Position numbers and translations under genes: made by a program
Assembly: GCA_043228905.1 (NCBI GenBank)
Contig: JBHGNT010000006.1
Location: forward strand, 12,276,001 to 12,340,000
Source: Azolla caroliniana
Taxonomy: Eukaryota > Plantae > Polypodiophyta
Length of the DNA: 64,000 nucleotides
Reading direction: 5' to 3'
The notes under the pieces: generated by a model
Told to the model about the DNA's origin: nothing
Databases searched by the model: none
The model's input: only the letters and a program-made list of their open reading frames with translations
Shown here: positions 4,480-58,964 of the stretch, in pieces
Numbering within the stretch: the stretch's first letter is position 1
Layout of the letters: each line of letters opens with the position of its first letter

Positions 4480-5240
4480 TGTCGTGCCTTTCGGCTCCGG
4501 ATCGTTTGCGTGAGTCGGGTGGGAACCACCGGGGTTTTGGACTAGGAAGAGGAGAGTTTTAAGGCTAATAAGAATATAAATATGTTGTAAGAAAGAGTTA
4601 TAGCAAACTCGTGAATCCCACGAGTGTATTGTATTAGATTAATCAATATGAATATAAGAATATAAACTTCGGTTGAAAGAGAATGATATAGAATTCTCGT
4701 GAATCCCACGAGTATAGTTTATTAATTGGTGTTTTAGGAAATATATCCAATTTCCCAAATATTTTTCACACCTATTACACTGTGCTTCCCATCCTTATGT
4801 AGTGATGAGAGAGACTAAGCATAGCTACATGCTTTTTTCTAATATGTTCATGCACACTAAATGTGCATGTGATGCTTTTCTAATCCTTGCTTTTATTTGC
4901 TAAATATAGTGCTCATACACGCTAGATGTGCACGAGTCACTTTTTAGTTGCTTGCGTTTTTTCTATAAAATATTCACACACTCTAAAAATGCACGATTTA
5001 CCTTTTAATAAAGGTAGGCGCAAATAAAGCACTTATAGTTATTAAATCTATTTATAGAACACTAAAGATAAGGTAGTATAATGGTAAAGTTGAGGTTTAT
5101 TTACGTGGAGGTACAGGGTTCAAATCCTGCCCTATGCACGTGATAAATATCTTGATATTCTTATTTTATTTATTTATATGTAATTAAATCGGTTATATTA
5201 TTTTTACTTTTTCACGTACTGTACGAAATACACTACGACA
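4480..5240 (-). mobile_element. Solo LTR with 4-bp TSD ACGT; same family as LTR 55918-56731
   Basis: TG...CA termini, ACGT on both sides; excision restores the gag frame; strong similarity to 55918-56150. Confidence 0.9.
5067..5138 (+). other. tRNA-like module (Pol III box A/box B) inside LTR; not a functional tRNA
   Basis: Box A TAGTATAATGG 5074-5084; box B GGTTCAAATCC 5117-5127; no clean anticodon arm. Confidence 0.65.
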
Positions 5241-5666: not shown

Positions 5667-5870
5667 CTTTGTTATGTCGTGAAAATCCGTCACTATGTGT
5701 GGATCGTGAAGCGGAGCCACCGGGGTTATGGACGGGAACGAAATAGGGCTCACACGCATAACACAAGGAAGGTTTACACAAATAAGGCACAAGTATATCG
5801 AACGTGTTTGTGAAAAGGAGAGGTGCATGGGCAAGCCTGAATCAACCCCTAGTCACAAGGCGAATGAATG

Positions 5871-6303
5871 TGTTAACTCTTCGGGCCGGACAATGGCCTA
5901 ACACAGGGTGTCTACGGGAGACACTTCACCAAAGGGTGTTACGGCAACCGGATTAGACTTCAACGCTTAATCCGACTTAATCAAGTTACTTATTAGGATC
6001 GTCTTCATAACACGCGTAAGATATAACAATTAAGACAGAACGGCAATTAACACAGAGAGATAACAACGCTTAAGCTTTCATTAATTAACCGCTAACTATT
6101 ACATTGTATCCGGGCCTTTAAATAGGTTTCCAGTCTGTATTACAAAACGGTGCCCTCCGCACCTGTTCGGGATCGGTCCGGATCCGGAACGGCATACCAT
6201 TTTCGGTCCGTCCGTCCACACTCGTAGCTTCATTACAACCACATTCCTACTACTTAATTAGCTCTTCGTTTCCCACTCTGGACTCCTTTCCCGGCCGGTA
6301 ACA
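5871..6303 (-). repeat. 3' LTR of Gypsy 5871-13678
   Basis: TG...CA termini; direct repeat of 13259-13678; TATA-like CCTATTTAAAGG on the minus strand. Confidence 0.9.
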
Positions 6304-6305
6304 CA

Positions 6306-6322
6306 TGGCACGCCTGTGGGAC
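6306..6322 (+). promoter_or_regulatory. PBS-like sequence (tRNA-Arg), inverted, at the PPT position
   Basis: TGGCACGCCTGTGGGAC lies 2 nt inside the LTR; no purine tract on the coding strand. Confidence 0.7.
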
Positions 6323-6357
6323 AGTACCTTGTACGTCGAATCCACAACCGACCCTTG

Positions 6358-9300
6358 CTATTCTTCGTCCAAAATGTCCAGAATGCTTTGTTCGAGAGGC
6401 TCCAATGGTTCATCTGGAAGTGGTTGTTGTTGTTGTTGTTGTTGTTGCTCTGTTGCTGTCTGCTGCGGCGGGTCCGTTGGTGGTTGTTGCGGCTGCTCCT
6501 CCGGTTGTGGCTCTGACACCGGCATCTCCGTCGTTGCTCCCTGCGTCGTGGTGGTCTCCGGTTGACTGGTTCCCGGCTGGCCCTCAGCCGGCGACGGTTC
6601 CTCATCACTAAGGTTAACCGTTGTCGCTTCCCGTGCTTTTTCTTCCCGCACCATGGACCGCTCGTAGCTTTCAAACTGGATTTGAGCGTCCAGCCTATCA
6701 TCGTCCAGCTGAACTACGACCTGCTTGACCTGCGCCAACTGTTCATCTGCCAGGACTTGGAAGTCGTCGGCCAGCTCGTCCCGTATGGCGGTCAAGTCCT
6801 CGGAAGTCAATGTATAACAGTCATCTCCTTCCTTTCGCCGGTTTGCCACATCTGCCCGTAGCAACTGGAGTTCCGCCGCGTTTTTGTGCCCACTTTGTCC
6901 ACCATTTTACGGAGCTTTCATCAATCAAGTGTTTCGTCTGATTCAGCCATGCCCGGAGGATGGACTGAATCCGGCTCGTTCCCAATTGCGATTTGGTTTC
7001 CGCCGCTTGCCGTTCCTCCTTCAGTTGTTTGATGATTTTGACGTTGTCCTCCGCCTGTGCCTTGTAATGCGTCAATTGCCTTTGATATGTGCTTTGTAAT
7101 TTCTGCAATACTGTTGACGCTCTCTCTTTGTCTTCCTGCTGCTGCTTCTGGAGCTCCATCCGGACCTTCTCCGCCTCTTCCAAGCGTCTTGTATTTTCCG
7201 CCCGTTCGTCGGCGATCGCCGTCGCGGCCCGATCAACTGCCTGCTGGAGCTCGGTCATCCGTTCTTTATGCTCCGTTTCCAGCCGTTTGTAGTCCCGGTG
7301 CAGGTGCTCAAAATCATCCGTCTTTTGCTTGAGCCGTGTGTTGATCTGACGACGGGCCCGGTCCTCGCGGTCCTTCTGCTGGCGGAGCTCTTCCTTTAGC
7401 CGTTCAATCTTTGTTTCCGCCGTTTTCTGCAGCTTGTCCTTTTCCTACAACACTTTGTCTTTCTCCTCCTTTAGCCGGTCGTACGCTTGATGGCCTTTCC
7501 GGAGGCTCTCCTCTGCTCGGCGGAGGTTCTCAGCAGTCTTCTTTAATTCGGCTTCGGCCGCCGTCTTCAATTCTTGTTCACGGCTCCTTAGCGCGTCTTG
7601 TGCGGCAAGTTCCTCTCTCAATTCCGCAAGCTCCTGAGCTTGCGCCGCATCTCTCGCCGGAACGGTTTCCGTTGCCGGGGTCTTATTGCTATGTACAGGT
7701 CGTTCCGTTTCATTATTCTGTACACTTACCGGAGTCACCGGTGATTGGATCCGTATTTTGGCCATCTCTGTCGTGACCTGATCCAAGTCTTTTTCAAGGC
7801 ACCGGATTCTGGACTGGGCTGTCTCTAGTTGTTCGGTTGTGACGAGAAACCGTTCGCTTTGCGCTCTTTCTTCCGCCTCTATATACCCCACTGCTCCGGC
7901 TATCTGTTCGCCTATCCACCGGAGCCACAGGCTACCGGTGCCTTGTTGTGCTTGCACGGAGGTTTGACAGATGGGCTCACTTGTAGAGGGGTGGTCCCGC
8001 CTGGTTGCGCCGAGTTGCAGTTCTGTTTCTGCCCGTGGACCATCCTGCTATCCTGGTTCCCCTTGCTCTTCTTCTTGGCTGACCGAGGGAGGCTGCAGTG
8101 ACCTTTCCGGCTCTGGCGGGATGGGACTTGCCGGTGTTGCCGGTGTTGCCGGGGCTTCTGTTTCCGGTGCCATCTGCACCGGTTCCGGTTCCTTCCTTGG
8201 CGTGGGAGTCTCATCAGTATGGGGAGCCGGTGTTCCCTTCGTCTGAGGGTTCGAACGTTTCCCGGCTGTCTCAACGGTCCTTGCCGACGACCGTCGCTGG
8301 AGGTGCTCCGTAGGCTCCTCCTCTATTTCCTCCTCCTGAGCTCCGGCATTGAGTTTTGCCGCCAAGGGGTCCACTTCTCGATTCACCGGTCGGCGGAGTG
8401 TGACCTTTACGGGCCGTGCCGGTGGTTCCTCCTGCGCCTCCGTTGGGCACTTCCGGCTGCCACTTCCTGCTGCCGCCTGTTCTGCATCCGCCACCTTTCC
8501 CTTACTGGCCTTAGAGGCCAACGGCTGTTGCCGTTTGGAAGCCGTCCTTGGGGTGCCGTCAGCCACTCTTCCTCGCTTCTTGGGCTGGACGGTCTGAACG
8601 GGTGGCACCAGCAAGGTGAGCCACTGCGTTACGGCGTGCCATATCCTTCGTCCGTCTCGGCCTTCTTTGCCGTCTTTGCCTCTGACGATCTCGATCGCCG
8701 CACACAACCCGTCTGCGATCAATACCGGCCAATCCACCTTGATCCCTTCATAAGTGGCGATGATCATCCCTGCCCGGTTGTGCGGCATGACAGGGGGTCT
8801 AGGGTACACGTGGCCGTATTCATGGAGCACACGAGCAATTTCGCGGAACAACATATCTCCGCCGCCCTGTGTCCGGTAGCCCTTGTTGGCTAGAGAGTAC
8901 TCACCAAAATACCTGATGAGTTGCTCCGGGGTTGGATTGTCGATCGTGAGTATGCCTCCCTCCGGAAGGCCTGTTAACGCTCGAATCGCCTCTGCCGTTA
9001 TGACCTCTGTATCGATTTCCTTGATCACTTTGTCGGCTTCTTTGTGTGGCGGTACTTCCATCATCATCAAGAAGCCCTCGAGCCCTTGTTGCTTCAGCCA
9101 TGTCTTGGCGGATTCCGACAACGTTTGCGCGTCCATCTCTGTGTCGGGGTCGGCTTGCGGTGGCGAGGATGGATGGTGATGAGAGTGGGGTTGAGAAAGA
9201 GAGAGTTCAGAAGGCGGGGGTTCTCTATGCGCAGGTTCTCGTCTGATGATCTTGCAGCGTTTCGGTGCTTCTGTGCTCCTGGGTTCGCGAAAGTAGAGGG

Positions 9301-9358
9301 TCTCTACGCGCAATGGTTTTTGTCTGTGCATTCTGCCGCCTTTTTCGAGTTTGTGCAT
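6358..9358 (-). pseudogene. Extra ORF of the Gypsy (~1000 codons): globular N-terminal domain, disordered linker, long coiled coil, Q/E/P-rich tail
   Basis: ORFs 8048..9358, 7445..7957 and 6821..7258 share a frame, separated by single TAG stops; one frameshift near 6880-6900 joins 6358..6864. Confidence 0.75.
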
Positions 9359-9512
9359 GTCGCGTACTTAAAATAGCATTATGTCCTGTGGTGGCGCTTT
9401 AAATACCCACTACGTACCTTTTCGCTCCACGCTCTTTCATCCATTCATTCCTCGCTTTTGCATGATTGTTTTTTTTTTTTTTTGTTCAGTTATTATTATT
9501 ATTATTGTGACG

Positions 9513-12500
9513 TCACTTGTCCGTTGGTCCTCTTGAACCCTTACCGGCCTCGTTCTCCCCAGTTACCAACTCGCCTTCCCTACCGTCTTGGTGGTTGCCG
9601 TCCGTCCTTTGCTCAAACGGGTTCTTAGGCATCGGTCCTCTATATGCCTTTAACCGGAATCCGTTGACCCATTTGTCCAGCACTTCGCCGGCAAGTGTCC
9701 CCAACTGGTAGGACCCATTATACTCCCGTGTTAGCCAATATGGTCCGGTCCATCTAAACCTTAGTTTACCCGGCATCTTGCCCATCTGGGTTTGGAATAC
9801 TAATACCGGTTTGCCGATTACGAACATTTTTTCGTTACCTTTCCTGTGCCGGTCGACGAATGCTTTCCGTCGCCGTTGCTCCAATTCTAAATGTAGGATG
9901 CTGGCCAACCGTTGTTCCTCCAGCTCACACAGCGCTGTCAACCTTATTGTCTCCGACTCCTTCTCGTTCAGCCGTTCTCGTAGCTGGATCCGTAAGCTAG
10001 GTACTTGAAATTCTACCAACATGACCGCCTCGAGTCCGAATGCCAACCGGAACGGTGTTGTTCGGATGCTCGTTTTGTATGCCGTCCGGTATGCCCAAAG
10101 CGCACTATGTAGCTTTGTGTCCCAATCCGTCCGGTTCTCGTTGACGATCTTCCGAAGGATATTCTGGAGCGTCTTGTTTGTTGATTCCGCTAATCCGTTC
10201 GCCTGTGGATAGTAAGGTGTGCTTCGTTTGTGGACCACGGCATAGAAGGTCGTTAGGCTTTCTACTACTTGTCCGAGAAAGTGCCCCCCTTGGTCACTTA
10301 TCAATTCAATGGGGCATCCGTAACGGCACCAGATGTACTCATATAGAAACTTTGCAGTTGACGCAGCGGTGTTATCCCGTAAAGCTTTGGCCTCCACCCA
10401 TTTCGTGCAGTAATCCGTCGCAACGATAACGTACCGATTACCCGTTCTCATTGCCGGTGGCTTGAATGGTCCTACAAAGTCCAGCCCCCACTTTTGGAAT
10501 GGCTCGAGTGGTAGTACCGGCTGGTGTGGCATATGAGCCTGCTCCGTTGGCTGGCCCATTCTCTGGCATAGGTCACATTCTTTTGCGTACCGTACCGCAT
10601 CTCTTAATGTCATTGGCCACCATATGCCACTTTGCCATATTTTTCTGGCTGTCGCATCTCCGGCATAGTGACCTCCGGCAACTCCGCAGTGGGCTTCCCT
10701 CAGTATCAGTTCCTTTTCATCGCTGCGCACCGCCCGTCTCCATATGCCATCAGCGCCCTTGTGGTACAGTGTGTCTTGCAGTAAGCAGAAATGTCAGCTT
10801 TGTACCGCCAGGCGTTTCCGTTCGTCCCGGTTCAGCTCTTCCGGAGGCAGTCCTGTGCTCAGAAACTGGTGCATATTTGTGAGCCACTTGTCTTCCTGGG
10901 CCACTGCCTCATCTACTGCCGTCTCTGTAGTGACTCGAAACAGCTCCGCATCCAGAAACTCATCCGGTACTCCGTCACCCGTCTCTCCGGACTCCAATCG
11001 GCTTAAGTAATCCGCTACGGCATGCTGTATACCAGGTCGGTGGAATATTTCAAACTCGAACTCCTGTAACACTAAGGTCCACCGGGCCAATTTTCCGGTG
11101 AGTGACGCCTTGGACACTAGGTAAAGGAGTGCCGAATAATCTACATGGAAGGAAAACTTCCTTCCCAATACATAGTGCCGAAACTTTGTCACACTGTAGA
11201 TCATTCCTAGAGCTTCCCGTTCCGTGGTAGAGTAGTTCCGTTCTGCTTGGGATAGCTTCCGGCTGGCATAGTACACTGGTCGGTACCACTTTGGTTCCGT
11301 AAGCTTCATCAGTACACTTCCGATTGCGATGTCGGAGGCGTCCACGAACACGTGAAATTCTTTACTCCAATCCGGAGGTTGTACTACCGGTGCTTGCGAC
11401 AATAGTACCTTGAGGGCCTTATACGCCCTATCCTCAGTATCGGTCCACTGGAATGGTATCCGATGTACGGCGCCATGCAACGGTGTAGCCAGGTCGGCCA
11501 AGTATCGGAGCATCCGGCTGTGCCACCGGATCTTGCCTAAGAACCGGCTTAATGCCTTTGTCGTTGCCGGCGCCGGTGCTTCTAATATGTCTTTCACTTT
11601 GTCCGGGTCGATTGCAATACCTTCCTGGCTCACGATATGTCCTAATAAAGTTCCACTGGACACGCCAAACACACACTTTGCCGGATTCAAGCTTAGCCGG
11701 TACGCTCTACACTTTTCTAGACAAAGACGGAGGTGCTGAAAATGGTCCTCCTCCCGGCTATAGACGGCGAAATCGTCAAGGAAAACCTGCATAAAAGCCG
11801 GTATATATTCAACAAAGATTTCCATGATGATTCTTTGAAACGTTGCCGGTGCCGTTTTGAGTCCAAACATCATCACCACGGCCACAAACACCCCCCATTC
11901 GGTGACGAATGTCGTTTTCTCTTGGTCGTCGGGGTGCATCCGGATCTGATTATACCCGCTGAATCCGTCTAGGAAGCTATAGACCTCATGGCCGGCGACG
12001 GCATCCAACACTCCATCTGTGAACGGAAGTGGAAACGCATCCGTTACCGTAGCCGCATTGAGTTTCCGGTAGTCCACGCAAACTCGAATTTTTCCGTTCT
12101 TCTTCGGTACGACTACGATCGGGCTCAGCCATGTCGCTTTCTTTACCGGACGGATAAAGCCAACTCTTAGCAGTTTGTCGATTTCTTCCTTGACCTTGGC
12201 AGCATAATTGGGATTCATCCGATACCGTCTTTGTGCCACTGGTTTTGCGTCCTTGCTCAAGTGCACTTGATGCTAGTATAACTGAAGGTCGAGTCCTCGC
12301 ATATCTTCGTATGACCAGGCGAACACATCCCGGAATTCCGTGAGAAGTGTTATCATCGCCGTTTTGTCTTCGGACTTCATCTCCTTGGCGATGTGCACCG
12401 GTTTTGCTTCGTCTGTGGTGCCTAAATTCACCTCTTCCAGTTGCGATGCTTTTACGCGCTGTGAAACGGTCATTTCCCGTTCCAACGCTTCCTGCGCTTG

Positions 12501-13258
12501 TCGTAACTCCCGGATTGCGTCTTTATCCGGTTCTGCTTCCGCCTCTTCCGGTTGCGGTAAGTATGGTGCTACGGCTTCGGCAATGTCAATTTCGAAGAGG
12601 GGTATGATCTTCGGGTTTTCCTGCAGGTATTGAGCTTCTTCTTCGTCCGCTAACCCTTCTAGCATGTTGAGGCATTCCGCATACAACGGTGTACATTCCT
12701 TGCCAGTGCTCGTCCTTGGCTGTGTTGGTACCCGTACCTTGGCTTTTCCTCGCCGGAAGGTAATTATATTTTTTCGCCAATTCTGTTTGATATGTGCCGT
12801 TTTCAACCATGGCCGCCCCAGCAATAGCGGGTATGCGCCTTGTGCCTGTAATTGTAGCATTATGGCCGAGATGTGAAATGTATGACCGCCGACAGTGACT
12901 TCTAATTTCCGTATTAATCCTGTCGGCCGTACTGAGCTTGTATCGGCCATCCGCAACCAGAACGGACACGGCTCCCACTGGTGGATTCCTAGGTCATCAC
13001 ACGTCCGGAGGCTTATTACATTTACCCCAGAGCCTCCGTCTATGACTGTGCCGGGAAGTTCTTTCCCTTTTACAATGGCAGTGATTACTGGGCTGCTGGT
13101 GTCTATCACCGTTGGTCCCTCCTCCGGATTCGAGAAGAGTACCGGTGCCGGTGATGGTTCTCCTGCCGTCATGGCCGTCTTCAGTCCTTCCGTGAATCTT
13201 GGCACGAGTTGTAGGAGTCTTCCTAGTGGTAACGTAATCTGGCATTCTTGCAACACCT
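9513..13258 (-). pseudogene. Gypsy gag-end/protease, RT, RNase H and integrase (split by premature stops)
   Basis: VIDGGSGVN protease; LDGFSGYNQ and VFLDDF RT; DASD RNase H; HCGVAGGH...CDLC, ISDQG, YYPQANGLAE and GPY integrase motifs. Confidence 0.92.
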
Positions 13259-13678
13259 GGCCGGACAATGGCCTAACACAGGGTGTCTACGGGAGACACT
13301 TCACCAAAGGGTGTTACAGCAACCGGATTAGACTTCAACGCTTAATCCGACTTAATCAAGTTACTTATTAGGATCGTCTTCATAACACGCGTAAGATATA
13401 ACAATTAAGACAGAACGGCAATTAACACAGAGAGATAACAACGCTTAAGCTTTCATTAATTAACCGCTAACTATTACATTGTATCCGGGCCTTTAAATAG
13501 GTTTCCGGTCTGTATTACAAAACGGTGCCCTCTGCACCTGTTCGGGATCGGTCCGGATCCGGAATGGCATACCGTTTCCGGTCCGTCCGTCCACACTCAT
13601 AGCTTCATTACAACCACATTCCTACTACTTAATTAGCTCTCCGTTCCCCACTCTGGACTCCTTTCCCGGCCGGTAACA
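13259..13678 (-). repeat. 5' LTR of Gypsy, missing its last ~13 bp
   Basis: Matches 5884-6303 and is fused directly to gag/protease sequence. Confidence 0.9.
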
Positions 13679-13689
13679 GAATGCACATG

Positions 13690-14290
13690 AGGAAGGCTTA
13701 CACATGGACACACGAGGAAAAGTCTTACTTACACACACGAGAGACAGAGTTTCGAATGCCTTTGTGAAAAGAGAGGTGCATGGGCAAGCCCGAACGCTCC
13801 CTTGTTACAAGACACGCGAACACACAAGGAAAAGGCTTACTTACACACACGAGAGACAGAGTTTCGAATGCCTTTGTGAAAAGAGAGATGCATGGGCAAG
13901 CCTGAACGCTCCCTTGTTGCAAGACACGCAAACACACAAGCAAGGTTTACACACGGGAGACACAATTTCGAATGCCTTTGTGAAAGGAGAGGTGCATGGG
14001 CAAGCCTGAACGCTCCCTTGCCACAAGTTTCACAAACACACAAGCAAGATTTATAGTAACACGCAAGACACGAAAGTTTGAATGCCTTTTTTAAAGGAGA
14101 GGTGCATGGGCAAGCTCGAAACACTCCCTTGTCACAAGACACACAAACAGATAAGCACAAATGACAATAACATATAAGATACGTAAGTTTGAATGCCTTT
14201 GTGAAAGGAGAGGTGCATGGGCAAGCCCGAAACTCTCCCTTGTCACAAGACACACAAACAAATAAGCACAAATCACAATAACATATAAGA
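13690..14290. repeat. Tandem array of ~104-112 bp units inside host LTR (5 units, plus one at ~5760-5860)
   Basis: Core gaatgcctttgtgaaaggagaggtgcatgggcaagc at ~13754, 13866, 13970, 14080, 14191. Confidence 0.85.
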
Positions 14291-15029
14291 CACTAGGCGT
14301 AACCAAAATTTAGTTTATTATAATATAATAGATTCTTTTATAAAATAAGAATCAATTTTACAACGGGTTTGATATGATAATGAGAGATAATTTATATAGG
14401 AAGGGGGAAGAGAGGTGGAGGAAAGAAGAGAGTGGAATATAGAAGAAGGTGATTCTTTGTTGATGATGCCTCTCGATGTTGTTGATCCTTCTTCTTTTGC
14501 CTTCCAATTGAGTAGAGCTTCCGTGTTCCTTGTCCCTCCCCCCATCTTCACTAGAATAGGCTCTTATTTATAGGTTTAGGATTGCTTGTCTTTTTCCTCT
14601 AAAAATAAGCTTGTCTATATGTGTCGACTTTTCTTTTCCTCACTATTTCTGTTTTCTACCGCCAAATTTCACTTGGAAGATATTATTGGAAGCTCTTTGG
14701 GTTAGCTTTCTCATGCATCTTTTCTTTTCTAATTTGGACATCGGACGAGGAAATTATGAGCCTTTTTCTCTACTGTGCTCCTCATATCCACGCGTGCTTC
14801 TTCTTTTTTACTCTCCATCTTTTTCTCTACTTTTTTAAAACCGCTTCTAACTTAATATTTATCATTATTTATTGTAAGGTTCAATCCTTTGACCGTTTAT
14901 TTATAATGAATTATCTTTGGCAAAATGAAAAAGTATTTTTGCTACCAATAAAGTTGACTTCACAATACTAGTTTATTTAAACTACTATTTTGCTTCTTTT
15001 CGAGGGTGATTTCACACTGTGTTAGAAAC

Positions 15030-32700: not shown

Positions 32701-35700
32701 CCCCAAGTTGTAAATCTATCCCCATATGTGCTCTTAGAGTGCACATTTTGTGATAGCGCCCCAAATGAGGAGCGGCTAGTGTGCAACTCAACCATATGGG
32801 TCGATAAGGTGTTAATCTAGGAAACTGTAGATGCGTAGGACACAATGTATTTAGGAAAGAGAGAAATAGGTAATAGGATAGGCTAATCAAGTCAACTAGA
32901 ATATTTTGTGGGCAAGTTACGATGTACTTAGTCTTGAAGTATGCGTCATTGACTTCAAGCTAAGTACTATCTAGCACTAGCCTGTACCTAGGGAGTTGGT
33001 CATATTAAATGACAAGTCAGTTGACAGAAAAGGAATATCTCCACTACTATCAACTGACTTGCACATTTAATGTTATTCGTAGACCAAACATAGAAAGCAA
33101 TCCACTTTCTTTTCACAGTGGTTGGCTTGATTATCAGTCCCCACCAATTTTGTAGTGAGCTGGTCCATATCCTATCTAAGCTCTAAGGTGTGAGTCCATG
33201 GGAAAACTACCATTGTGAGCTACTCTCATATGTAATAGAAGTTTTGTTTTCATATATCCCATCTCTGTAGTTGTAACTCTATATACCTATCTAATTGATT
33301 CTCAATATTTCTAACATGGTATCAGAGCTGAGAGGTTGATCTAGATTAGGTATATATGGGCAGTTGCTGTCTGGCAGCACAGAGAAATAGAGAGAGAGAG
33401 AGAGAGAGAGAGAGTATCAATGGCCTTGTCCACGAATGTTGCAGCTACTCCACTGCGCATTCACCCACCTCCATTGTCTGATGGAAAGCTAGATGGAACC
33501 AACTACACTCTATGGAAATTCAAAATGTCTGCCATTTTGGACTCCTACGAGTTGTTGGAGACAATCATGGGACCCACAGGAGGAGACCTTGAGCCCATGA
33601 CGACCTTTGACCCTGCACACCCTACCACATCAATCCCTCCAAATACTGATCTACTTCGAGCCTGGAAGAGAAGGAATGCTGATGCGCTGTGTAAATTAGT
33701 CAACTGTGTATGTCACTCTGTACTAACATTAGTGCAACATACAACCAAGGCACATGAAGCTTGGAGCATATTGGCCAGCCAGTATGAGACCAGAAACTAT
33801 ACAAGGATACAAAACCTTGAAAATTAGCTTGCTGCAGAGAAGCTCGCCGATGGAGAGAAAGTAGAATCCTTTGTAAAAAGGATTAAGGATCTTCAAGATC
33901 AGCTGGCGGCTGTTGGAGTAGTCGTCTCTCAAGAGGATATGGCTCGTCGGTGCATTCGAGTACTTCCTTTCAAGTATGATGGCATTGTGACAGCATTGAA
34001 CACTCAGGTTCGACCCACTCCTTTAAAATTTGATGAACTAAGTGTGATGCTGCTTGAAGAGGAGCTTCGGCTAAAGACAAGAGAAGGAAGGGAAGATTCG
34101 GCATTTGTCTCTAGGACTAAGGGTAAAGAGGCATCCAATTCAAACAATGCGAATAGGATACCAAAGAAGAAGTTCAATGGATCGTGTTTCTATTGTGACA
34201 AGAAGGGTCACACAATCAAGGATTGTCAGAAGAAGATGGCGGACGAGAAGAATGGTTCTAGTAAGACCTCTTGGAGAGAGCCCGAGTCCGCCAACAACGT
34301 CGTAGATGAGCTTGAGTTATGGGTCGCAACTGAAGAAGTGTGTTCTTCAATTGACACCCAAGTTGTCGACGACTCTTGGATTCTCGATAGTGGGGCGTCC
34401 CGACATATGACCAGTAATCGTGACTGGTATAGCTCTTGGACACCACTACAAGAGCCCATCAATGTTGTGGTCGAGAACAATGCTCAATGTCCAGCCAAAG
34501 GAACCGGAACCGTCTCCCTCAAAGCAACGACCGGCGGGACAAAGCATCTCTCTCAAGTGTTGTACATGCCAGATCTCAAGAAGAATCTATTGTCCATTTC
34601 TGCACTGACCAACAAGGGTCTTGATGTTCGATTCAAGAAGTCGGGTGCAGAAATAACAGATTCTGCTGGCAAGTTTGTAGGAATAGGGGTAAGGCGCAAC
34701 AATCTCTATGAGCTGAGTGCACTTACCATTTCTACTGACCACAGCACAAGTACTAACACAAAGCAATGGCATGAGAGATTTGGGCATCTCAATGTTGCTG
34801 TGTTGAAGGAGATGAAGAAGTCGAATATGGTAGTTGGGTTGCCAACCCTATCTGACTTAAGTCATGTTTGTGATGCTTGTATGATGGGCAAGCATCAAAG
34901 ATCAGCTATTCCAAAAGAGAGTCAAAATCAGACAAAGACTCCTCTACAGCTAATACACATCGACCTCTCTGGAAAAATGGTGACTCCTGCAATGGGTGGA
35001 TCTCTCTACTATATGCTGCTAGTCGACGACTTCAGTAGAAAGATGTGGGTTTACTTCCTTCGGGAGAAGGCTGACGCTTTTAAAATCTTCAAAAGATGGC
35101 ATAAGTTTGTTGAGCGAGATTCCAGAAAGTTAGTGAAGGAGTTACGCTCTGATCGAGGTGGAGAATTCTTATCAATAGAATTCTGTGAGTATTGCAAAGA
35201 GCATGGAATTAAGCACCAACTTACAACTGCCTACACCCCACAACAAAATGGTGTTGTCGAACGTCGAAACCGAACAGTTGTCGAGATGGCTAGGTGTATG
35301 TTGAAGGCACAAGCGCTGCCTGACCCATTCTGGGCTGAAGCAGTGAATACAGCAGTTTACATCCTCAATCGGAGCTACACGAAGGCACTTCAAGGGAAAA
35401 CACCCCACGAAGCTTATTCAGGCAAGAAACCTTCAGTGCTGCACTTCAGAACCTTTGGGTGTACGTGCTACGCACATGTTCCAGATGTGAGCAAAAAGAA
35501 GTTGGATGCTAAAAGCAAGAAGTGTATCTTTCTCGGATATAGTGAAGAGTCAAAGGCCTATCGACTCTACGATCCAGAGGCAAGAAAGATATTGACAAGC
35601 CGCGATGTGGTGTTTGATGAAGAACAACCACAGCTAGCTGAGAACAGCGATTCTCAAGTTATCTCATCAACTGAAGAGGTATTTTACCCAATCCCGACCC

Positions 35701-38700
35701 ATTGTCCAGAAAAGGAAGCTGAACCATCTGATGGTAATGGCTCACATTTGCAGCGCCAGTCCTCATGCATCCAGAAACCCTAGATCTTGTTTCTAAACCA
35801 TGGCTAAACAATCCCATCCTCCATATGTAAGTGGGCCCCTCAGAACATAATATTGATTAAAATCAGTTATAGATTCCATTGATCATCTGTAACAAAACTT
35901 CCCTGATTCACATGTGACGTCTATCAAATGAGAATTCCCACCAGATTCCGAAATCTGATGCCATGTTAAAATGACATTTATTTAATTTCATTCACAAGCA
36001 AACTCACTCACATGAAATTTACATGTGACTGATTACCTTAATTTGGAATTGCTTAACCAAAAAACGTACATGTGACAGATTTGGTTGTTAGCTACATCCA
36101 GAAATAACTGGTAAAAAGTAACAACTTGTTGCTGAGAAGTCAACTAAGCAGCGAAGAACATCTTCTAGTGGGTAGGAATATGGTCATTTAGTAAGATGTT
36201 CTAAAAACTACCCAGATATTGGCATATCCATACTGAGTCCTAAGCAAACCAGTAATAAAATTCATTGAGCTGCTCTTCCATACAGTTGAATAAGAAAGAG
36301 ATGGACTTATTAATTAATGTTATGCAACAAAAACTACCATGCTATTATATATAAGGCTTACATTGTCCTTCAACTCTTGAATGTGTTTTCTGAGATATGC
36401 GAAGCAACCTTTACCATGATGCTTTTGTGCAGGAATTCGCAGACCTAATTGAGAAAGCCGCTCTTTTGCCCTTGTAACAGTGGCCTCTACCTGACATTTT
36501 TGAAAACGAGAAGAAAAATACTTCAAATTGGTGCAAAGTTCGGAAATGTTTCAATCATAAAATCCCATTTGGAAAAATAATAATATTAACACATGAATAA
36601 GACTATTGTGTCATTGCATAAATCAAAATGCATATACATGTCAAATTCCTTTCATTGCACAACACGTTGACCTCATGAAATTCAGTGGATTGGCTTTTGT
36701 GTTACCAGAAGAAAATAAGAGAAATCTATTTAAATTAACCTTATACAAAGATATTGCCAGAATTACATTCAAAGTACTCATAGAAAATGATTGTGAAATA
36801 GAATGGTTGACATTGCGTCCTTTATATGCATACTTGCTAGCATACATACATGGATCCTGAGTCCTGACAGTATGTATAAAAATGCCCAAGTCCTTGTCTT
36901 ATGTGATGGGAAAGCAACTTCGCTTAATGTAGATATGTGAACTATCCAAGATTCCTCACATGGAATCATTAAAAATGGGTCAGATAGAATTTAAAAACAT
37001 AGTATAGGCATTAGGCTATAAATCTGAACCAAAATCCATATACAGTGAGCCCAAATTCTAGTTACTCCAAATGTGTTGGCATTCTAAAACTCAAGCTTTA
37101 CAATGAAAATTTTACATAATGTACCACAACAGCCTTGCCTACAAGATCCATGAGTGCCTTGCCCGTCAACTTCCAATTACTTTCCACAAGAGATTATGAA
37201 GTAGTATACTGATAAACTGCGCAAAAGGACTGTACAAGATCATGATGGCATAGTTGCACTATGCAAGGCACTTGATCCATGCCTCAGTTATGGTTGGGGA
37301 GCTCTATGATGGACCTACTGAGAAATGGAATGCTACCAGTATTATGCCTATGCAGATATTGCTCAAGACTAGTAGATGGCACTAAGATTGGACTTGACGA
37401 ATGACTGTCAGGCTATCATGATTAGTCACTGCATTGGCCAAGCACGATGCATTCATACTTTGAGCAATGGTTCCAGAGGAAATCCCCTACTTTGCATCAT
37501 ATATTGGAACAGTGTTATTATCAAGGAGGGCAGAACCTGTTTCAGATGGATTCTTGTTGCTTAGTAGATTTTGGCCCCATTTTTATACATTCATGCCACA
37601 TTTCATTGTTCTTTATCCCATGCCTTTTGTCAATATCCTTGATTTGTTCTCATAGGTCATTTTGGCCAAGTTTTATTTCACATTAGTGTCACATTTTCGT
37701 ATCATTTTCCCCTCACCGTTTTTGAGCAACATGATTTCGCCTCGTCAGTCATTTTGGCCAATATGTTTTTGTGTGAATATCAGATGTCATTTATCTCTCA
37801 CCTTTTTTGAGTATCATGCTTTCACCTCATCGGCCATTTGGCCAATTTCTTTTGGTGTAAATATCAGATGTCAATCATCACTCTGAGTAAATGATTCACC
37901 CTTTTAGAAAATGTCATTTTGGCCTTCCGTTCATGTTAAAATTTACATTTTAGTTCATTTCATCTCATCCTATGTGGGTACAATGATTCTTTTGAATGAG
38001 AAACGCAAAATGTAAAGCTCACATCTGTTTTTCTGACCATAGAGAAACTTAAGTGAGTACAATGAATCTTCTAAGTGCATAACATAAAACTCTAAGAAAC
38101 TTTATGTCCATTTCACTGATCCAGTAACAAACCTGAGTACGACGTTTATGAATGGAATCCGTCTCCTGCTTATCTGAATGAAGAAAGCTCGCAGCAAGGG
38201 CACGACGCTTCTGAAGAAAATCTTGTTGACCATCCTCCACTAGCGAAGAAGTGATCTTTTGAAGTTGGAATGGCAAAACCGGAGGAGCCAGATGATTATA
38301 CAAAGTCGGAGTTGATGAGGATGTTGTTGTTGTAGATGATGAGGATGAAGGAGGAGGTACAACGTGACTACCAGGAAGCGTGTTGTCAACAATATTGCTT
38401 CTTCTTCGGGCTACTCTATGTGATGGGTTCTGAACAGATGCATGAGCAGAGGAGCCCTCCAATATCAAACTGTTGCTCTTTACCTTAGACCGGTGAGAAG
38501 GTCTTCTATTTGAAGAGGGACCTTCGCCATCAGGAGAGAGGATTACATTATCATGAGGCGAAGAAGAAGAGGCCATGCCACCTCGGAGCGCATCATTCCG
38601 AACATCATTTGTCCGAACTGCATCATTCCAAACCGCATCATTTCGAACGGGAATGGAAGAGAAGAGATTGCTGTCTTTTGATCTTAACCCTGAAGAGCAG

Positions 38701-40690: not shown

Positions 40691-43600
40691 GGGTTAATGG
40701 CCCATGGCAACTAACAACGGTATTGAATATCGATCATTAGGACCCTTGGCCATGGTCCTCCTGAGCCACATCCAAAACCTTCTGTAGTGTTGTGCATCAT
40801 CGACCTTGTTTCCATTTCCATGGCAATCACTTTCATTTTCAGATTTGTTTCTGTCTTCATTTTCATTGACTTCATCAGTTTTTGCATCCTGTTTCGGGAT
40901 GTACCAACTACCCAACTCATCAAATATTACATCACGGCTTACTACAATCTTTTTTGTCAAAGGGTTATAATATCTATACCTTTTTTGCTCCTTTGAATAT
41001 CCCACAAAGACACATTTTTCAGTGTTTGGATCAAGCTTACTTCTTACTTCAACGTGTACATGAACATAAGCAATGCATCCAAACACTTTTAAGTGTCCTA
41101 AACTAGGTTTCCTGCCATAGAAACATTTTTCAAGAGTTACTACATGTACTCCAGATATTATGCATCTACTTAGAATATAGTTTGTTGTGTTTACAACTTC
41201 AGCCCAGTAATACAATGACATATTTTTTTCAGTCATCAAAGCTCTTGCTATGTTTACCAAAGTTCTATTTTTCCTCTCAGCCACTCCATTTTGCTATGGA
41301 GTATATCTACATGTGAACTTTCTGTTAGGAATTCGGTCCCTCCAGATGGGATTTGGATGAGAACCGGAGGAGCCGGATCGGACGAGTCGGATGAAGGAAG
41401 CGGATCCGGAAGGGTTCCGGATGGGACCCGGAAACCGGATCGAGTGAATTTGGATGGATCCGGTGCAAACCGGATCGAAGGACATATGTGTAAATATGTT
41501 TCATGGTTAGCCTATTGAGGTTATATTTGTAAATAGCCCAAAAGTCATATAAGTATAAATATGACTTAGGGCAATCACTTTATGTGAATATGGTGTAGTA
41601 GTGGTTGTATCATCATTGTACACAGGGTGTGAGAAAGCGAGAGAGAGAGATACAAAACTAGTTTCTGTTGTAACCGTCGGTTGGCGAAGACATAGAGTTG
41701 GAGGTCGTTGCCTCTGAGTCTCACATTGTATTCCTCCCCTCATAGTGATAGTTGGAGTCTGTGGGATCCCGTGGTTTTTCCCATTTAGGGTTTTCCATGT
41801 TAACATTCTGTGTCATCTTATTTTCAGTTTCCTCTCTTCCATTCACTGTTTTAAGACTCGGTTGTGGCCGAGCATCATTTCCACATCAATCCTGGTATCA
41901 GAGTGAACAAGAAAATGGAAGAGTCATTCGGAAGCATGTTCAAGCTCACCGGCTCCAACTACCCAGTGTGGAAGTCGAAGAAGAGGGACATGCTCGTGGT
42001 CAAACTTCTCTGGCTGCTGGTACAGTTCGGGGACAAGAAACCGGATAAGATCGATGCCGCGACATGGGAGGTGATGCACATGAAGACGATGGCATACATA
42101 CGGTGCTTCATCAACATGAGCATGTACAACAACTTCAATGAAGAAAGTAAGGCTCATGTGCTCTGGGAAAAAATTGGCACCATGTTGGAGAGTAAAAACA
42201 TCATAAATCGGGTTTCGGTATTCCGGAAGTTAGTGAGACTCCGGTACCAGGACGGATCCAGCATAGTAGAGCACATGAATGCATTTCAAGGGCTCATAAA
42301 TCAAACAACTTCGCTTGAAGTACCTCTAGCCAACGAGGTACTTGCATTGCTCCTGCTCAGATCCCTCCCGAATAGTTGGGAGACACTAATTGTCACTTTG
42401 GGCAACATTGGACCGGAAGGAAAGCAACTATCCCTAGCAAGAGTGAAGTCGAGCTTGCTAGATGAAGAAGCTCGCCAGAAGGACTAGGAATCCGGAACCG
42501 ACCTGAAGGCCTTGGCTGCGGAAGATGACCATAACCGGGGGAGAAACCGGTACCGGAGTCCCCAGAACCGGGATAAGTCGGGGACAAGGTCGAAGTCAAG
42601 GGGGGGGGGGGGGTGGGGGCTCCTTACTTCCATTGTGGGAAGCCAAGGCACTTCCAGAAAAACTGTCGGCATTAAGAGAAAGGAACCGACAGTGTTGATT
42701 CGAAGAAGGGTTCGGACTGGAAAGGCTCGGATCGGAAGGGAATGTCGGCAATTGCGACAAGTGAAGAAGAACTGTTTCTCATCACCGAGGAGAATGAGTT
42801 AAACCTTGTCGGTGACGAGACAACGTGGGTTGTCGATTCCGGAGCATTGTTCCACCTAACACCGAACCAGAGATGCTTCTCATCCTACACAACCGGAGAT
42901 CACGATTGTGTCCGGATGGGGAATGAAGGGACCTGCCGAATCATCGGCATAGGAGATGTGTTGTTGACGACATCAACCGGATGCAAGTTGTTGTTGAAGG
43001 ATGTCCGACACGTTCCGGAGGTTTGGTTGAACCTGATATTAGTCGGTCGGCTAGATGATGAAGGCTACATGGGTAGCATCCGGAACGGAGTCATGAAGTT
43101 CAGCAAGGAAAGCTTGGTTGTGGCTCGAGCCTGGAAAATCAATACATTATACCTGATGCAGGCTCGGATATTCCGAGAAGAAGTGAACGTAGCATCTAAC
43201 AATGCCAGTGAGTTGTGGCACAAGAGACTATGCCACATGAGCCAGAAGGGGATGAGAAGACTTGCCGAAGTTAACCTCATTCCGGAGGTGAAAGACGTGC
43301 AGCTTGATAAGTGCATTGATTGCTTTGCCGACAAGCAAAACTGAACCTCCTTCCAGTCAAGACCACAGATGAGACGGAGTGCACCATTGGAATTGGTGCA
43401 TACCAATGTGTGTCAAGTCGACACGAAGTCACATGCCGGATCGTAGTACTTCGTGACGTTCATAGACGACCACATCCGGAAGCTATGGGTCTCACCGTTG
43501 AAGATGAAGGATCATGTGTTGTCTATCTTTAAGGAGGTCCACACAAGAGTGGAAAGAGAAACCAGCCGAAAGCTGAAGGCGGTTCGAGCAAATAACAGAG

Positions 43601-44052
43601 GAGAATACCGGGGGCAGTTCGAGGAGTACTACAGGTCGAAGGGAATCCGGCTCGAATTCACCATGCTGAAGACGCCGGATTTGAATGGGCTGGTGGAATG
43701 AATGAACCGAACAATAATGGAGAGAGTCTGAAGCATGCTAGCACATGCAAAGTTACCCAAGACGTTTTGGGTTGAGCCGCTGATGACAACAATGTACGTG
43801 ATTAGTAGGTCACCCTCGGCACCCTTGGAAGGAGACACACCACAGAGAGTATGGACCGGTAAAGACATGTCTTACAGGCATCTGAAGGTGTTCGGGTGTC
43901 TCGCATATGTGCATGTTGCAAAGGACAAGAGAGCAAAGTTGGATCCGAAATCCCGACCCTACCATATTCCTTGGATACGGCGATGATGAGTTTAGTTATC
44001 CAGTGTGGGACCTGGTCGACAAGAAGGTCTTCCGGAGTCGGGATATAGTCTT

Positions 44053-47000
44053 TGTAAACGTAAGTGTTTGCAGAAGCGTAAAACAGAGAACAACACACAT
44101 AGAGAGAGAGAGAGCGAGAGAGATAGAGAGAGCAGAACACAATTCAAAATTATATCAAGACTCTATATACACACTGTGCTAAGTAGCACTATTTATACAA
44201 GTCCTCTTGGGACTGACAGAAGTACCATGTACTTCAATGCTCACACGAGCATCTAACACTTACTACGAGACTATAGCTACCTAGTAGTCTATCCTATACT
44301 AGGCTTCTGATTGGACTTCCGGTTACGGATTGCACTCGGCCTCCACTGCTTGTCGGTTCGGTTGCTCACCGTCATACCGATCCGTTTCGCCCGATCCGTC
44401 TCGCTTACCGGCTCCGGCTTATTCAGCCGATCCGACTCCTGTTGAGCTTGCCGCTCAACACTCCCCCTCAAGCTCAACCTGAGGTGGGGTCGTAGTGTCG
44501 ACCTCTGTGGCAGTCGGTTCTTCCAACCAACTTCTCCTGGTGTCACTCCGCCTTGCTCGTGCTCCTCGTCCGGTCACGTCCCGTTTGCCGCGACCCCTTT
44601 GGTTCTGCGCGCCTTGACCCTCTCGGTCGGCATGTCTGCTCAATAGGCCAATCTCAGCACTCACGTTGCTGTGACTCCGGCGCTTGCCGATCCGTCGGTT
44701 CTCCCACGATGGCATCGACTTCCGCTGTGTCCATGTCCCCTTGGCCTTCAGTCGATCCAACTCATCCGGATCCATCTGTTGATCCGAGTCAGCTATCTCC
44801 GACTCGTTCCAGCTCTTGTCCGAATCGGTACACTCCGATTCGACTTCCGACTTCAGGCCTCTCACCACATCGGACCACTTCCGAGTCTTGGCCTTCTCCA
44901 TGCTTCCCTCGGCTTCTTCAGCCGGTGAACCGAAATCGAATTCTTCATTCGACTCTGTATCATGGTCAGTACCGTCGTGATGACCTCTGCACAACATGCA
45001 CTTCTCTTCCTGAGTGCACAACTCTTCTTCACAGCCGCTTGCTCCGACCTGTTTGGATGTGTCGACTTCCTTCGTCGACTCGGCTTCCTTCTTCTTGTCT
45101 CCTCTTCTTCCGGCTCTCCTCTTACCGACGGGTTCAACAGTTTTTTGGCCTTTGCCCGTTTCGATAGAGACTTTGCCCTTGCTTCTCCCCCTCAAGTGCG
45201 GCACGTCGAGATGCTGAATACCAAGCATGTCGGTAAAGTGCTGCAACTTGTCCGATCCGAGCGGCTTGGTGAAGATATCGGCAACTTGCCGATCCGTATG
45301 AACATACCGTAGGTCAACTTCACCGCTCAGGACCTGCTCACGCATGAAGTGGTAGTGCACCTCGATGTGCTTTGTGCGAGCATGGAACACAAGGTTCCTG
45401 GCGAGCTGCAGGCTGCTCATGTTATCGCAGTAAATCGGGATCGGGGTCGGTACCTCGATCCGCAAGTCTCGCAGCAGTCGCCCAAGCAAGATGGCTTCAC
45501 AAGTGGCAACGGTAGCGGCCCGGTACTCAGCCTCAGTGCTTGACAAAGCCACTGTGGGCTGCTTCTTGCTGCTCCACGCAACGGCCGCGCTACCTATGGA
45601 GAACATGTATCCGGAAGTGGAGCGGCGATCAGACGCATCGCCGGCCTAGTCAGCATCTGTGTAACCGACAAGCTCTTCGGGTATACCTCGCCGGTATAGC
45701 AGTCCCCGGTCCTTAGTGCCGCTGACATACCGTAATATTCGTTGCGCGCACTGAAGGTGCTCTACGGTCGGCTTCTGCATGAACTGACTTACCATCCCGA
45801 CCGGATAGCTGATGTCGGTCGGGTGATGGTTAAGTAGATCAGGCTTTCGACAACCTGTCGGAACCGTTTCTCATTGCAGGTCGGTTCGGAGTTGGGACGG
45901 AGCTTCTGGTTCCGGTCCAGGGGTGTGGAGACAGGTCGGCAATCCGTCATGCTGAACTTATACAACATATTCAACACGTAATGTCGTTGTGAGAGCAATA
46001 TGCCGTCGGGGGTCCGGATCACTTCGATCCCAAGAAAATAATGAAGGTCCCCCAGGTCCTTCATTTCGAATGCGTCCGACAACTGGGACTTGACGCGGTT
46101 GATTTCGGGAAGACCCGGTCCGGTGATGACTAAATCATCCACATACAAGAGTATACATAACGGACCGTCAGAGCCTTGCCGGATGAACAACGAAGAGTCC
46201 GACTTAGAGACAGCAAACCCTAGCTTACGCAACCGGTGCGTGATCTTCGCGTTCCAAGCTCGGGGGGCTTGCTTCAAGCCGTAAAGCGACTTCTTCAGTC
46301 GGCATACCGCCGACTTGTTCATCTCCGATTGAAATCCGGGGGGCTGAGTCATAAAGAATTCTTCTTCAAGCTCTCCTTGAAGGAAGGCGTTCTTCACATC
46401 CATCTGGTGAAGATGCCACCCCCTTGCCGCAACAACCACCAGTACCACACGAATCGTTGTCATCTTCGCCACAAGAGCGAAGGTCTCGTCGTAGTCGATT
46501 CCGTGGGTCTGCGCGTATCCCTTCGCCACTAACCGGGATTTGTACCGGTTAACAGAACCGTCAGCGTTGTACTTGACCTTGTACACCCACTTGCATCCGA
46601 TCGGTTTACAGTGATGGGGAGGATCAACTAGGTCCCAAGTTTCGTTGGCATCGAGTGCCCGCATTTCTTCGTCCATAGCGGCACGCCAATTTGCGTCCTT
46701 TGCCGCTTCGGCGTAGCTCTCCGGCTCACACACTTCTGTCACCTTAGTCATGTACGCATAATGATGCGCCATGTATTCATTGTACCCGTACCCATGACGG
46801 GATCCTTCTGGCGGGTTGATCGGCGCAACGCACCGTCACATGATTTGAGGCCCTTCTTGGCCAGTTCGGTCTTCGTTGCCGAAGATCCGCCTTTCTCCTT
46901 TCCGGAGTCGGATACGCACCGATCCGACTCATCGTTGCCGGTTTTGAATTCCGGCATCTTCCTCTTCCCCTTCTCTTTGCGCGTGAACCGTTTCCTCGGT

Positions 47001-52900: not shown

Positions 52901-53019
52901 ACTTTTCTTGCCCCTTGATTCCAATCCTTAATTGCTTTGATATGTGTAGCAGTTGCATTTTCTTCAAGGATCTCTAGAGCCTCTTCTAGGTCTCCTTCAA
53001 TGTAATCCCAATATCCTTT

Positions 53020-55917: not shown

Positions 55918-56403
55918 TGTCGTGCCTTTCGGTGCCGGATCGTTTGCGTGAGTCGGGTGAGAATCACCGAGGTTTTGGACTAGGAGAAAAGAAATTTCTA
56001 AGGCAATGAAGAATATGAAATATGTTGTAAGAAAGAAAGATATAAAAAACTCGTGAATCCCACGAGTATAGTATATTATTGAGTACTCAGATTAAGAGAG
56101 AAAAATAGTTAGCAAATTCGTGAATCCCACGAATATATTATATTAATCAACCCTTGTAAAAAAATCAACAACCACTATACATCTTTCTCTCTTCCTTATA
56201 TAGTGTTGGAAGAGTCTAAGTTTATCCTATGCAAGCATCATGCTTTTCCTAACTTTAGTTTTCATGCACAATGCATGTGCATGATTAGCTTTCTATCCAA
56301 TCTTTTCTTTTTAACTCGAGTGTGTATGCATGAATAACTTTTTGTACCATGCATATCTAGAATATTTACATGGGATAAAGTTTAGTATAACTTTAAAATT
56401 CAT

Positions 56404-56476
56404 AATATGCTAGTATAGTGGTAAGGCTTAACATTATTCACATGGAGGTACAAGGTTCGAATCTTGCCTTATGCAT
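56404..56476 (+). other. tRNA-like module inside LTR
   Basis: Box A TAGTATAGTGG 56411-56421; T-arm-like caagGTTCGAATcttg. Confidence 0.65.
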
Positions 56477-58580: not shown

Positions 58581-58964
58581 TGTAAAGAATCAAGAGATGG
58601 ATTCTTGTGAAGCGGAAGAGATGTGAGTTATGTGTGTAGAGAGAGAGAGTGTGAGAAAGAGTGAGTGAAACACAGAGAATACGCAAGGTAAAAGTATATT
58701 GACAAAGGAGAAAGACTCAACGTTATACAAAGTGGGAGGAGGGTGCTTTATATAGTCACCCTCTCTCTTCATTAACTACAAGACTCATGGAGCATGGGGA
58801 ATGTGAAAGCTCATAAGTTATGTGTCATAGAATATGATTCTATGAATCATATTAAATGCTAGAATACAAAGTGGTGACACAGTGGTGACTCTTGACCGTT
58901 GGAGTGTCTATTCACTCTCAAGGTGAGTTCACATACTAGACCAAGTTGAGCTTGATTCTCAACA
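58581..58964 (-). mobile_element. Solo LTR inserted in Gypsy RNase H
   Basis: TG...CA termini; TSD GCAAA/GCGAA (1 mismatch); coding resumes on both sides. Confidence 0.8.

Follow-up and report, generated by a model that had tools for sequence, protein, structure and literature searches.

An inverted, split tRNA-Arg(UCU) site at the polypurine tract position of a Ty3/gypsy lineage, a candidate primer site for plus-strand DNA

Structure of the element

The window, which is the whole 64-kb stretch of DNA that was analysed, contains a Ty3/gypsy element at 5871-13678 with the 5-bp target duplication GAATG on either side. Apart from the sequence adjoining the 3' LTR, which is detailed in the next section, the element is arranged as follows.

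5866-5870, no strand: left target site duplication GAATG, from the repeat match and the empty-site joint
5871-6303, minus strand: 3' LTR, 433 bp with TG...CA ends and a TATA-like box ~180 nt from its start on the minus strand
6358-9367, minus strand (sense): 3' extra ORF region, four pieces separated by stops or frames, with coiled-coil and low-complexity sequence
9513-10793, minus strand: integrase (H2C2, rve), from Pfam matches
10794-12272, minus strand: reverse transcriptase (RT) and RNase H, from Pfam and alignment with the Ty3 RT
12273-13258, minus strand: protease region and linker, with the 5' end cut by the deletion that took the primer binding site (PBS) and gag
13259-13678, minus strand: 5' LTR without its last 13 nt (inner end)
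13679-13683, no strand: right target site duplication GAATG, matching the left copy

The protease region, the RT-RNase H, the integrase and the pieces of the 3' extra ORF all lie on the minus strand, as the initial annotation had stated for all ORFs of the element. The empty site is seen as a joint of 5865 to 13679 in the contigs of all four runs, which fixes the borders of the element. After removal of one base lying outside the LTR, the LTR pair shows nine differences in 420 nt. The FLDD motif of the RT and the four acidic residues of the RNase H align with the Ty3 RT and are kept. The protease region matches that of a related locus (L097) at 84%, and homologues of the extra ORF (35-85%) occur in 15 related loci. 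An Atlas search with the extra ORF gave leads only, with scores of 0.79-0.80, all under 0.9.

Comparison with L097 showed that the inner end of the LTR at 13259-13678 joins directly into gag-pol just upstream of the protease, indicating that the 5' PBS and gag have been deleted in the window copy. The right LTR lacks 13 nt in addition to the missing PBS and gag, in agreement with the previously recognized loss of the 5' PBS region from this copy.

The inverted tRNA-Arg(UCU) site

The plus strand reads, in order, the LTR end ...GGTAACA (to 6303), CA, arm 1 (TGGCACGCCTGTGGGAC), a hairpin spacer and arm 2.

6304-6305, plus strand: 2-nt offset from the LTR end to the tRNA-CCA complement, with CA read directly and AACA at the same offset in relatives
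6306-6322, plus strand: arm 1, TGGCACGCCTGTGGGAC, whose 17 nt form the complement of the 18 nt at the 3' end of tRNA-Arg(UCU), its CCA among them, save for a gap of one base
6323-6335, no strand: spacer of 13 nt, consisting of A, a 4-bp stem strand, a 3-nt loop, the opposing 4-bp stem strand and G
6336-6349, plus strand: arm 2, 14 nt complementary to the tRNA T-loop and the 5' strand of the T-stem

Arm 1 is inverted relative to the element ORFs. This arm had been described in the initial annotation, which overlooked the hairpin (6323-6335) and arm 2 (6336-6349). The split-site pattern occurs once in the 64 kb and in none of 100 shuffles. The site splits after the 18th base from the tRNA end, the place at which ordinary PBSs stop (at the modified A58), and in tRNA numbering the spacer falls between the partners of positions 59 and 58. 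A search of 5800-6600 with Rfam gave one match, judged to be a chance match. No more than 3 consecutive purines occur on the coding strand within the 20 nt that precede the 3' LTR, bearing out the earlier remark that a purine tract is missing there, whereas the second gypsy element of the same window (55918-56729 and onward) has an ordinary polypurine tract (PPT) with a purine run of 8 nt.

The tRNA had been named in the initial annotation. Its identity and the one-base gap now rest on tRNA copies recognized by ARAGORN and Rfam. A related contig (L070) carries a 76-nt copy that ARAGORN calls tRNA-Arg(TCT) and Rfam RF00005 matches at 54.5 bits, together with a second, decayed copy likewise matched by RF00005. 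A viral contig (L063) carries a tRNA-Arg(TCT) with nearly the same arm. Aligned by eye, arm 1 matches the first L070 copy at 15 of 17 positions and the L063 tRNA at 16 of 17, with one gap each, and arm 2 matches them at 11 and 12 of 14 positions, respectively. The matching tRNA-Arg(UCU) comes from a related contig (L070) and not from the window's own host genome. The tail of the L070 tRNA pairs with the window site at -37.8 kcal/mol over both arms, compared with -27.2 for arm 1 alone and -16.0 for the opposite strand, with RNA parameters standing in for those of RNA/DNA. For 31 of 31 distinct sites, this tail pairs better with the plus than with the minus strand and arm 2 contributes more than 3 kcal/mol, both of which are partly true by construction of the pattern.

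Contigs of four runs, from organism A and from X4, X18 and X17 (organisms or metagenomes), were aligned over 6240-6400. Coverage is highest at 6294-6341 in each of the four, and in X18 it drops to zero over the LTR body while remaining high at the site. Among the substitutions of at least 2% listed for the four runs, none falls between 6291 and 6331, and 20 of the 25 listed substitutions lie at 6345 or beyond; the aligner or filter may favour contigs that match the site, and this invariance is therefore an upper estimate. Only T or C occurs at 6341 among the listed variants of the four runs (19-57% C, the rest T), and each of the two pairs with the tRNA G on the plus strand. Among the loose ends (24 of 180 listed), most start at 6297-6300 or 6343-6350 and none at 6304-6335. 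In X1 and in X4, which represent two different organisms, a contig with 7-8 other letters bridges the junction between the LTR and the site by at least 31 nt on each side.

The site in related loci

A metagenome scan with the split pattern, from which the LTR end was left out, gave 101 matches in 100 loci. Sorting by spacer separated 51 matches (50 loci) with spacers of 13-14 nt from 50 others, which were taken as chance background and served as the control. AACA lies two bases ahead of the site in 48 of the 51 related matches and in none of the 50 background matches, showing that the 2-nt offset read in the initial annotation is a fixed one. The 17-nt form of the arm is present in 51 of 51 related matches vs. 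19 of 50 in the background. As the loci were retrieved by the motif, conservation of the arms is partly circular and relatives bearing a PPT would have escaped retrieval. In 51 of 51 related matches, purine runs in the 20 nt ahead of the LTR do not exceed 3 nt. Positions 10-11 of the site read CG, TG or CA in 38, 9 and 4 of the 51, which may reflect tRNA isodecoders or CpG decay.

The 37 comparable LTRs, that of the window included, fall into 13 groups without a blastn link. All 13 groups carry the site, which thus outlasts LTR similarity. Searches with the window proteins (tblastn) gave matches at 16 of the 51, of which 15 are to the extra ORF, on the inner side. All 16 coding matches are antisense to the site strand. 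Sister copies retrieved in this way share the same inverted site with their ORFs opposed to it, and the site therefore appears to be a real, lineage-wide feature not confined to the window copy, as judged from loci retrieved by motif. All 50 loci belong to one series of ENA assemblies and do not represent many independent hosts. One of the related contigs also carries a plant LRR receptor kinase gene.

In the collection of genome contigs, a pattern anchored on the LTR gave no matches. In viral contigs, a single RT query found no close relatives and an RT alignment query found 62 distant ones (24-38%); the split pattern gave only two matches there, both true tRNA genes. A distant pol in L095 was considered as part of a site-bearing unit and rejected, as it is part of a different gypsy family that has a purine tract and an LTR of its own.

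The 51 related matches contain 21 distinct spacers. Covariation of the hairpin was analyzed in an alignment of 18 sites with spacers of 13 nt, made up of the window site and 17 of the 24 distinct ones; six sites with 14-nt spacers and L115 were excluded. In the aligned sites, 86% of the cells pair and three of the four hairpin pairs change on both sides. Double-sided changes occupy 14 of 72 cells, a number reached by none of 500 shuffles and by none of the slid controls (4 at most), although kinship of the sequences inflates this result. Three of the 14-nt spacers show a plus-strand G-T in the hairpin, and decay of methyl-C can yield a wobble on either strand. Single-strand folds of the site were not above shuffles on either strand (z of -1.3 to +0.9).

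The forward PBS at the other end

The window family's own forward PBS is deleted, and the forward PBS is known from relatives. In 10 of the 23 loci listed and in L092, the far LTR end is succeeded by a forward TGG site at a distance of 2 to 7 nt from the LTR. In the closest LTR group, the forward site starts with TGGCGACC at 7 nt from the LTR, and in another group a forward stretch of 10 nt matching the Arg(UCU) type lies at 2 nt. The forward PBS may resemble tRNA-Arg(UCG/CCG); typing against viral tRNAs yielded a mixture of isotypes (Asp, Trp and Arg) for three of nine loci. A comparable, variable AT-rich spacer of 3-6 bp before the PBS has been described for Athila (bioRxiv 10.64898/2026.03.20.713144). 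In L097, whose RT is 89% identical to that of the window, the order runs site, LTR, forward PBS, gag with zinc knuckles, protease and RT. Contigs with an LTR between both internal ends, of which six agree, probably collapse two LTRs into one.

The comparison of the two ends indicates that the forward site has the usual geometry of a PBS and that the inverted site occupies the fixed position of a PPT. In the relatives listed, the plus strand beside the far LTR end has no purine tract, only a 5-nt A run or none. Thus, flipping the element does not restore the arrangement of PBS and PPT.

Proposed priming of the plus strand and alternatives

The structure of the site suggests, with a probability of about 0.6, that tRNA-Arg(UCU) anneals to the first-strand cDNA and primes plus-strand DNA. 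A tRNA would prime minus-strand DNA at the forward PBS, and after strand transfer the RT would copy U3 and then the site while RNase H clears the RNA. The first-strand cDNA would correspond to the plus strand of the window, in which the site directly follows U3. The acceptor and T-stem strand of tRNA-Arg(UCU) would pair with arm 1, with one tRNA base bulged, and its T-loop and T-stem would pair with arm 2, the hairpin producing a three-way junction at about tRNA position 58. The 3'-OH of the tRNA would face the LTR and prime two extra bases followed by U3-R-U5. Finally, RNase H would remove the tRNA primer and integrase would trim the 2-nt end. The site is internal and copied from genomic RNA, and for this reason the gap and the hairpin should be kept by selection instead of being renewed from the tRNA. 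A whole plant retrotransposon lineage has probably given up the PPT and uses host tRNAs to start both strands, the second by way of a three-way junction between the tRNA and single-stranded cDNA. The tRNA-primed plus strand proposed in the initial annotation is supported, as a deduction from sequence.

In the main, though unlikely, alternative, the primer is provided in cis: a tRNA-like segment of the genomic RNA, with its CCA 2 nt ahead of U3, either withstands RNase H or is excised and primes the plus strand as a structured substitute for the PPT. The PPT position of the site and the fixed 2-nt offset are consistent with such a primer. The RNA strand folds into a T-stem-like helix around the hairpin in three of five sites folded, but the other two do not take this fold and none is above shuffles. 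Of 15 distinct 13-nt spacers, 4 have a wobble at the outer pair of the hairpin on the RNA strand and 0 have one there on the plus strand, which tilts towards an RNA hairpin, although the plus-strand G-T of three 14-nt spacers and methyl-C decay temper this. However, a conserved 5' acceptor strand is absent, with a 5'-acceptor-like partner present within 200 nt in only 5 of 51 sites, indicating that the RNA is not a self-contained tRNA fold. The T that is common at 6341 breaks the closing pair of the T-stem in the window RNA, yet it wobbles with a tRNA in trans. Moreover, copying the CCA and the T-loop would serve no evident need of a primer paired with the cDNA; their complement in the site would be unneeded by a cis hairpin and counts for a tRNA acting in trans.

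It is improbable that the template is an antisense RNA, be it the true genomic RNA or another transcript that is packaged as well, on which the site is a Ty1-like bipartite PBS primed by tRNA-Arg. A split PBS with an internal loop in one RNA is known for Ty1 (PMC5371799), and the relatives listed lack a plus-strand purine tract adjoining the far LTR end. Of 37 LTRs, 30 have TATA-like boxes in the coding sense, most of them at 128-211 nt from the start, and antisense boxes also occur in 20; the former argue against an antisense template and the latter for it, and the minus orientation assigned to the LTR in the initial annotation is thereby weakly supported. The gag-pol, the extra ORF and the forward PBS with its Athila-like spacer are all on the other strand, and a second transcript would have to be assumed. 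Antisense templating would still imply that both strands are tRNA-primed, as they would be with tRNA-Arg(UCU) on the first-strand cDNA.

Circularisation or dimerisation of the RNA through pairing of the site and the 5' PBS, with plus-strand priming elsewhere, is very improbable. In L070, L073, L129, L134 and L139, pairing between the site and the forward PBS region amounts to -18 to -28 kcal/mol. However, circularisation, an alternative raised in the initial annotation, fails in the closest group (L072, L095, L097, L119 and L142), where the PBS is of another type and the pairing amounts to only -9 to -10 kcal/mol with the site unchanged. It also leaves arm 2, the 2-nt offset and the missing PPT unexplained. 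A one-off inversion or chimera, likewise raised there and compatible with the window copy being a deletion derivative without gag and the 5' PBS, can be dismissed, as the same junction occurs in 50 other loci and 13 LTR groups, contigs bridge it in X1 and X4, and the target duplications match.

Implications

Priming of the plus strand from an element-encoded PPT is the rule described for retroviruses and LTR retrotransposons (PMC3185511, PMC5371799). An inverted site in the PPT position is apparently undescribed: the literature searched, the coverage of which ended before subscription papers, Repbase, the large REXdb files and preprint supplements, contained no description of an inverted PBS replacing the PPT. 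If the proposed priming is true, these elements would be the first LTR retroelements with tRNA-primed plus-strand synthesis, and a natural lineage of high copy number without a PPT would show that RT can begin the second strand on a DNA-bound tRNA. What the PPT is needed for and how the LTR ends are defined would become testable. Annotation tools relying on PBS and PPT for orientation would put such elements on the wrong strand or lose them, and PBS-based cDNA capture would read both of their ends. Fragments of host tRNAs could intervene in either priming step.

Classification and comparison with known systems

The order RT-RNase H-integrase, the TG...CA LTRs and the target site duplication are all present, placing the element in Ty3/gypsy. 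A PPT next to the 3' LTR, a usual but not a classifying feature of Ty3/gypsy, is absent from the window element and from 51 of 51 related matches. No Pfam match to the archaeal RNase H domain of Tat (TatI-III, Ogre and Retand) was found in the pol pieces at E 0.01, and the 426-aa integrase frame has no match to the chromodomain of chromoviruses. In a quick RT tree, the window falls in a clade of 31 of the 113 rows (SH-aLRT 99), made up of unnamed proteins without lineage-labelled references. Among named sequences, the closest to the RT come from Riccia, Adiantum, Calypogeia, Pinus and Cryptomeria (40-59%). Together with the plant LRR receptor kinase gene of a related contig, they indicate a land plant as the host.

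The element resembles the plant OTA lineages (Athila and Tat/Ogre/Retand), Phygy and Selgy in its 5-bp target duplication, the lack of a chromodomain match and the extra ORF after pol (PMC6317226). tRNA-Arg is a dominant PBS type in TatIII, Ogre and part of Retand (PMC6317226), but Tat requires an archaeal RNase H, and none was matched here. Assignment to Athila was rejected because the forward PBS of the relatives is unlike that of Athila, which is of the Asp/Asn type, and the extra ORF is forward, whereas that of Athila is reverse (PMC6317226). Phygy and Selgy, with a 4-bp target duplication, a Trp or Ala PBS and no extra ORF, were likewise rejected in view of the 5-bp duplication and the 3-kb extra ORF region here (PMC6317226). 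By the features tested, the window element seems to fit none of the REXdb lineages (PMC6317226). That survey describes one PBS and a PPT.

The Helenus and Cassandra TRIMs are also LTR elements carrying sequence derived from small RNAs (PMC10886601). However, their tRNA-like part lies within the LTR as a promoter and they contain a PBS as well as a PPT; the author reports no priming role for this part (PMC10886601).

The Gypsy element of Drosophila likewise has two tRNA-matching sites, one near each end (5' and 3', both for tRNA-Lys2; PMC1635307). Its 3' site, located on the RNA, binds the anticodon and T-stems rather than the CCA end and connects the two RNA ends, and cDNA synthesis can proceed without it (PMC1635307). 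The tRNA sites of Gypsy, Ty1 and Ty3 alike serve minus-strand priming or assist in it. In contrast, the 3' site of the window is inverted, includes the CCA complement and lies 2 nt from the LTR.

The likeness to Ty3 of S. cerevisiae includes the order PR-RT-RNase H-integrase, the TG...CA LTRs and the tRNA-primed minus strand (PMC5371799; PMC3185511), and the RT-RNase H of the window aligns with the Ty3 structure 4OL8 at E 2e-71. The plus strand of Ty3 begins at an RNase H-resistant purine tract (PMC5371799; PMC3185511), in contrast to the priming proposed here. Both Ty3 and Ty1 have bipartite sites that pair with the acceptor stem and the T-arm (PMC5371799; PMC3185511). A bipartite PBS of this type on the genomic RNA is improbable for the window lineage, as the tRNA complement is opposite to the ORF strand in 16 of 16 coding matches. 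The bipartite PBS of Ty1 and Ty3 is on the genomic RNA and serves minus-strand priming (PMC5371799; PMC3185511), whereas the site described here is on the opposite strand, in the position of the PPT.

The element ends, its extra ORF and its insertion site

The extra ORF at the 3' end of the gypsy element (window 6358-9367) is conserved at 57-65% in the metagenome locus L095 (4020-7010), where its counterpart is two long uninterrupted reading frames (643 and 337 aa). When this ORF was searched in the Atlas, a plant mobile domain came up as no more than a weak lead (score 0.79, with 39% of members carrying the family). The empty site of the element is common in all four sequencing runs examined, and the host sequence is another repeat with tandem units of ~110 bp (window 5674-5870 and 13679-14293). 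The LTR ends (window 5871-5877 and 6297-6303) are near-perfect inverted repeats of 7 nt, and in relatives CA follows the terminal CA at both inner LTR junctions. Thus, the ends of the element are nearly symmetric.

Other LTR elements in the window

Window 55918-61600, minus strand: second, distant gypsy family, whose 3' LTR is preceded by a normal purine tract
Window 4480-5240: LTR-like stretch related to this second family
Window 33315-35783, 40694-51240, 52771-53259 and 62909-63400: a number of copia elements, whole or fragmentary, with nesting in some cases

The second gypsy contains a 423-bp duplication inside RT, and L095 has a similar pol whose frame is open. Two of the copia elements or fragments carry ordinary PBSs (33315 and 63353), which we take to be Met-type.

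Metagenome loci with tRNA-Arg(UCU) sequences

L073, L092, L098, L129 and L134 form one group with LTRs of ~330-380 bp, in which the inverted primer site is present with little coding sequence nearby; they are likely non-autonomous elements. The forward match to tRNA-Arg(UCU) is only 10 nt, in four of the five loci. A single continuous unit in L092 holds the forward PBS, ~2.1 kb, the inverted site and the LTR start.

Another locus, L070, contains two tRNA-Arg(UCU) copies, each followed by integrase-like sequence.

L070 2079-2154, antisense: full copy with CCA, 5 nt past an LTR end
L070 2800-2872: second, decayed copy without CCA, ~720 nt beyond the first

These copies may have originated by recombination between a PBS and a tRNA gene. 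Alternatively, the primer may have been copied in full, or the arrangement may reflect an assembly join.
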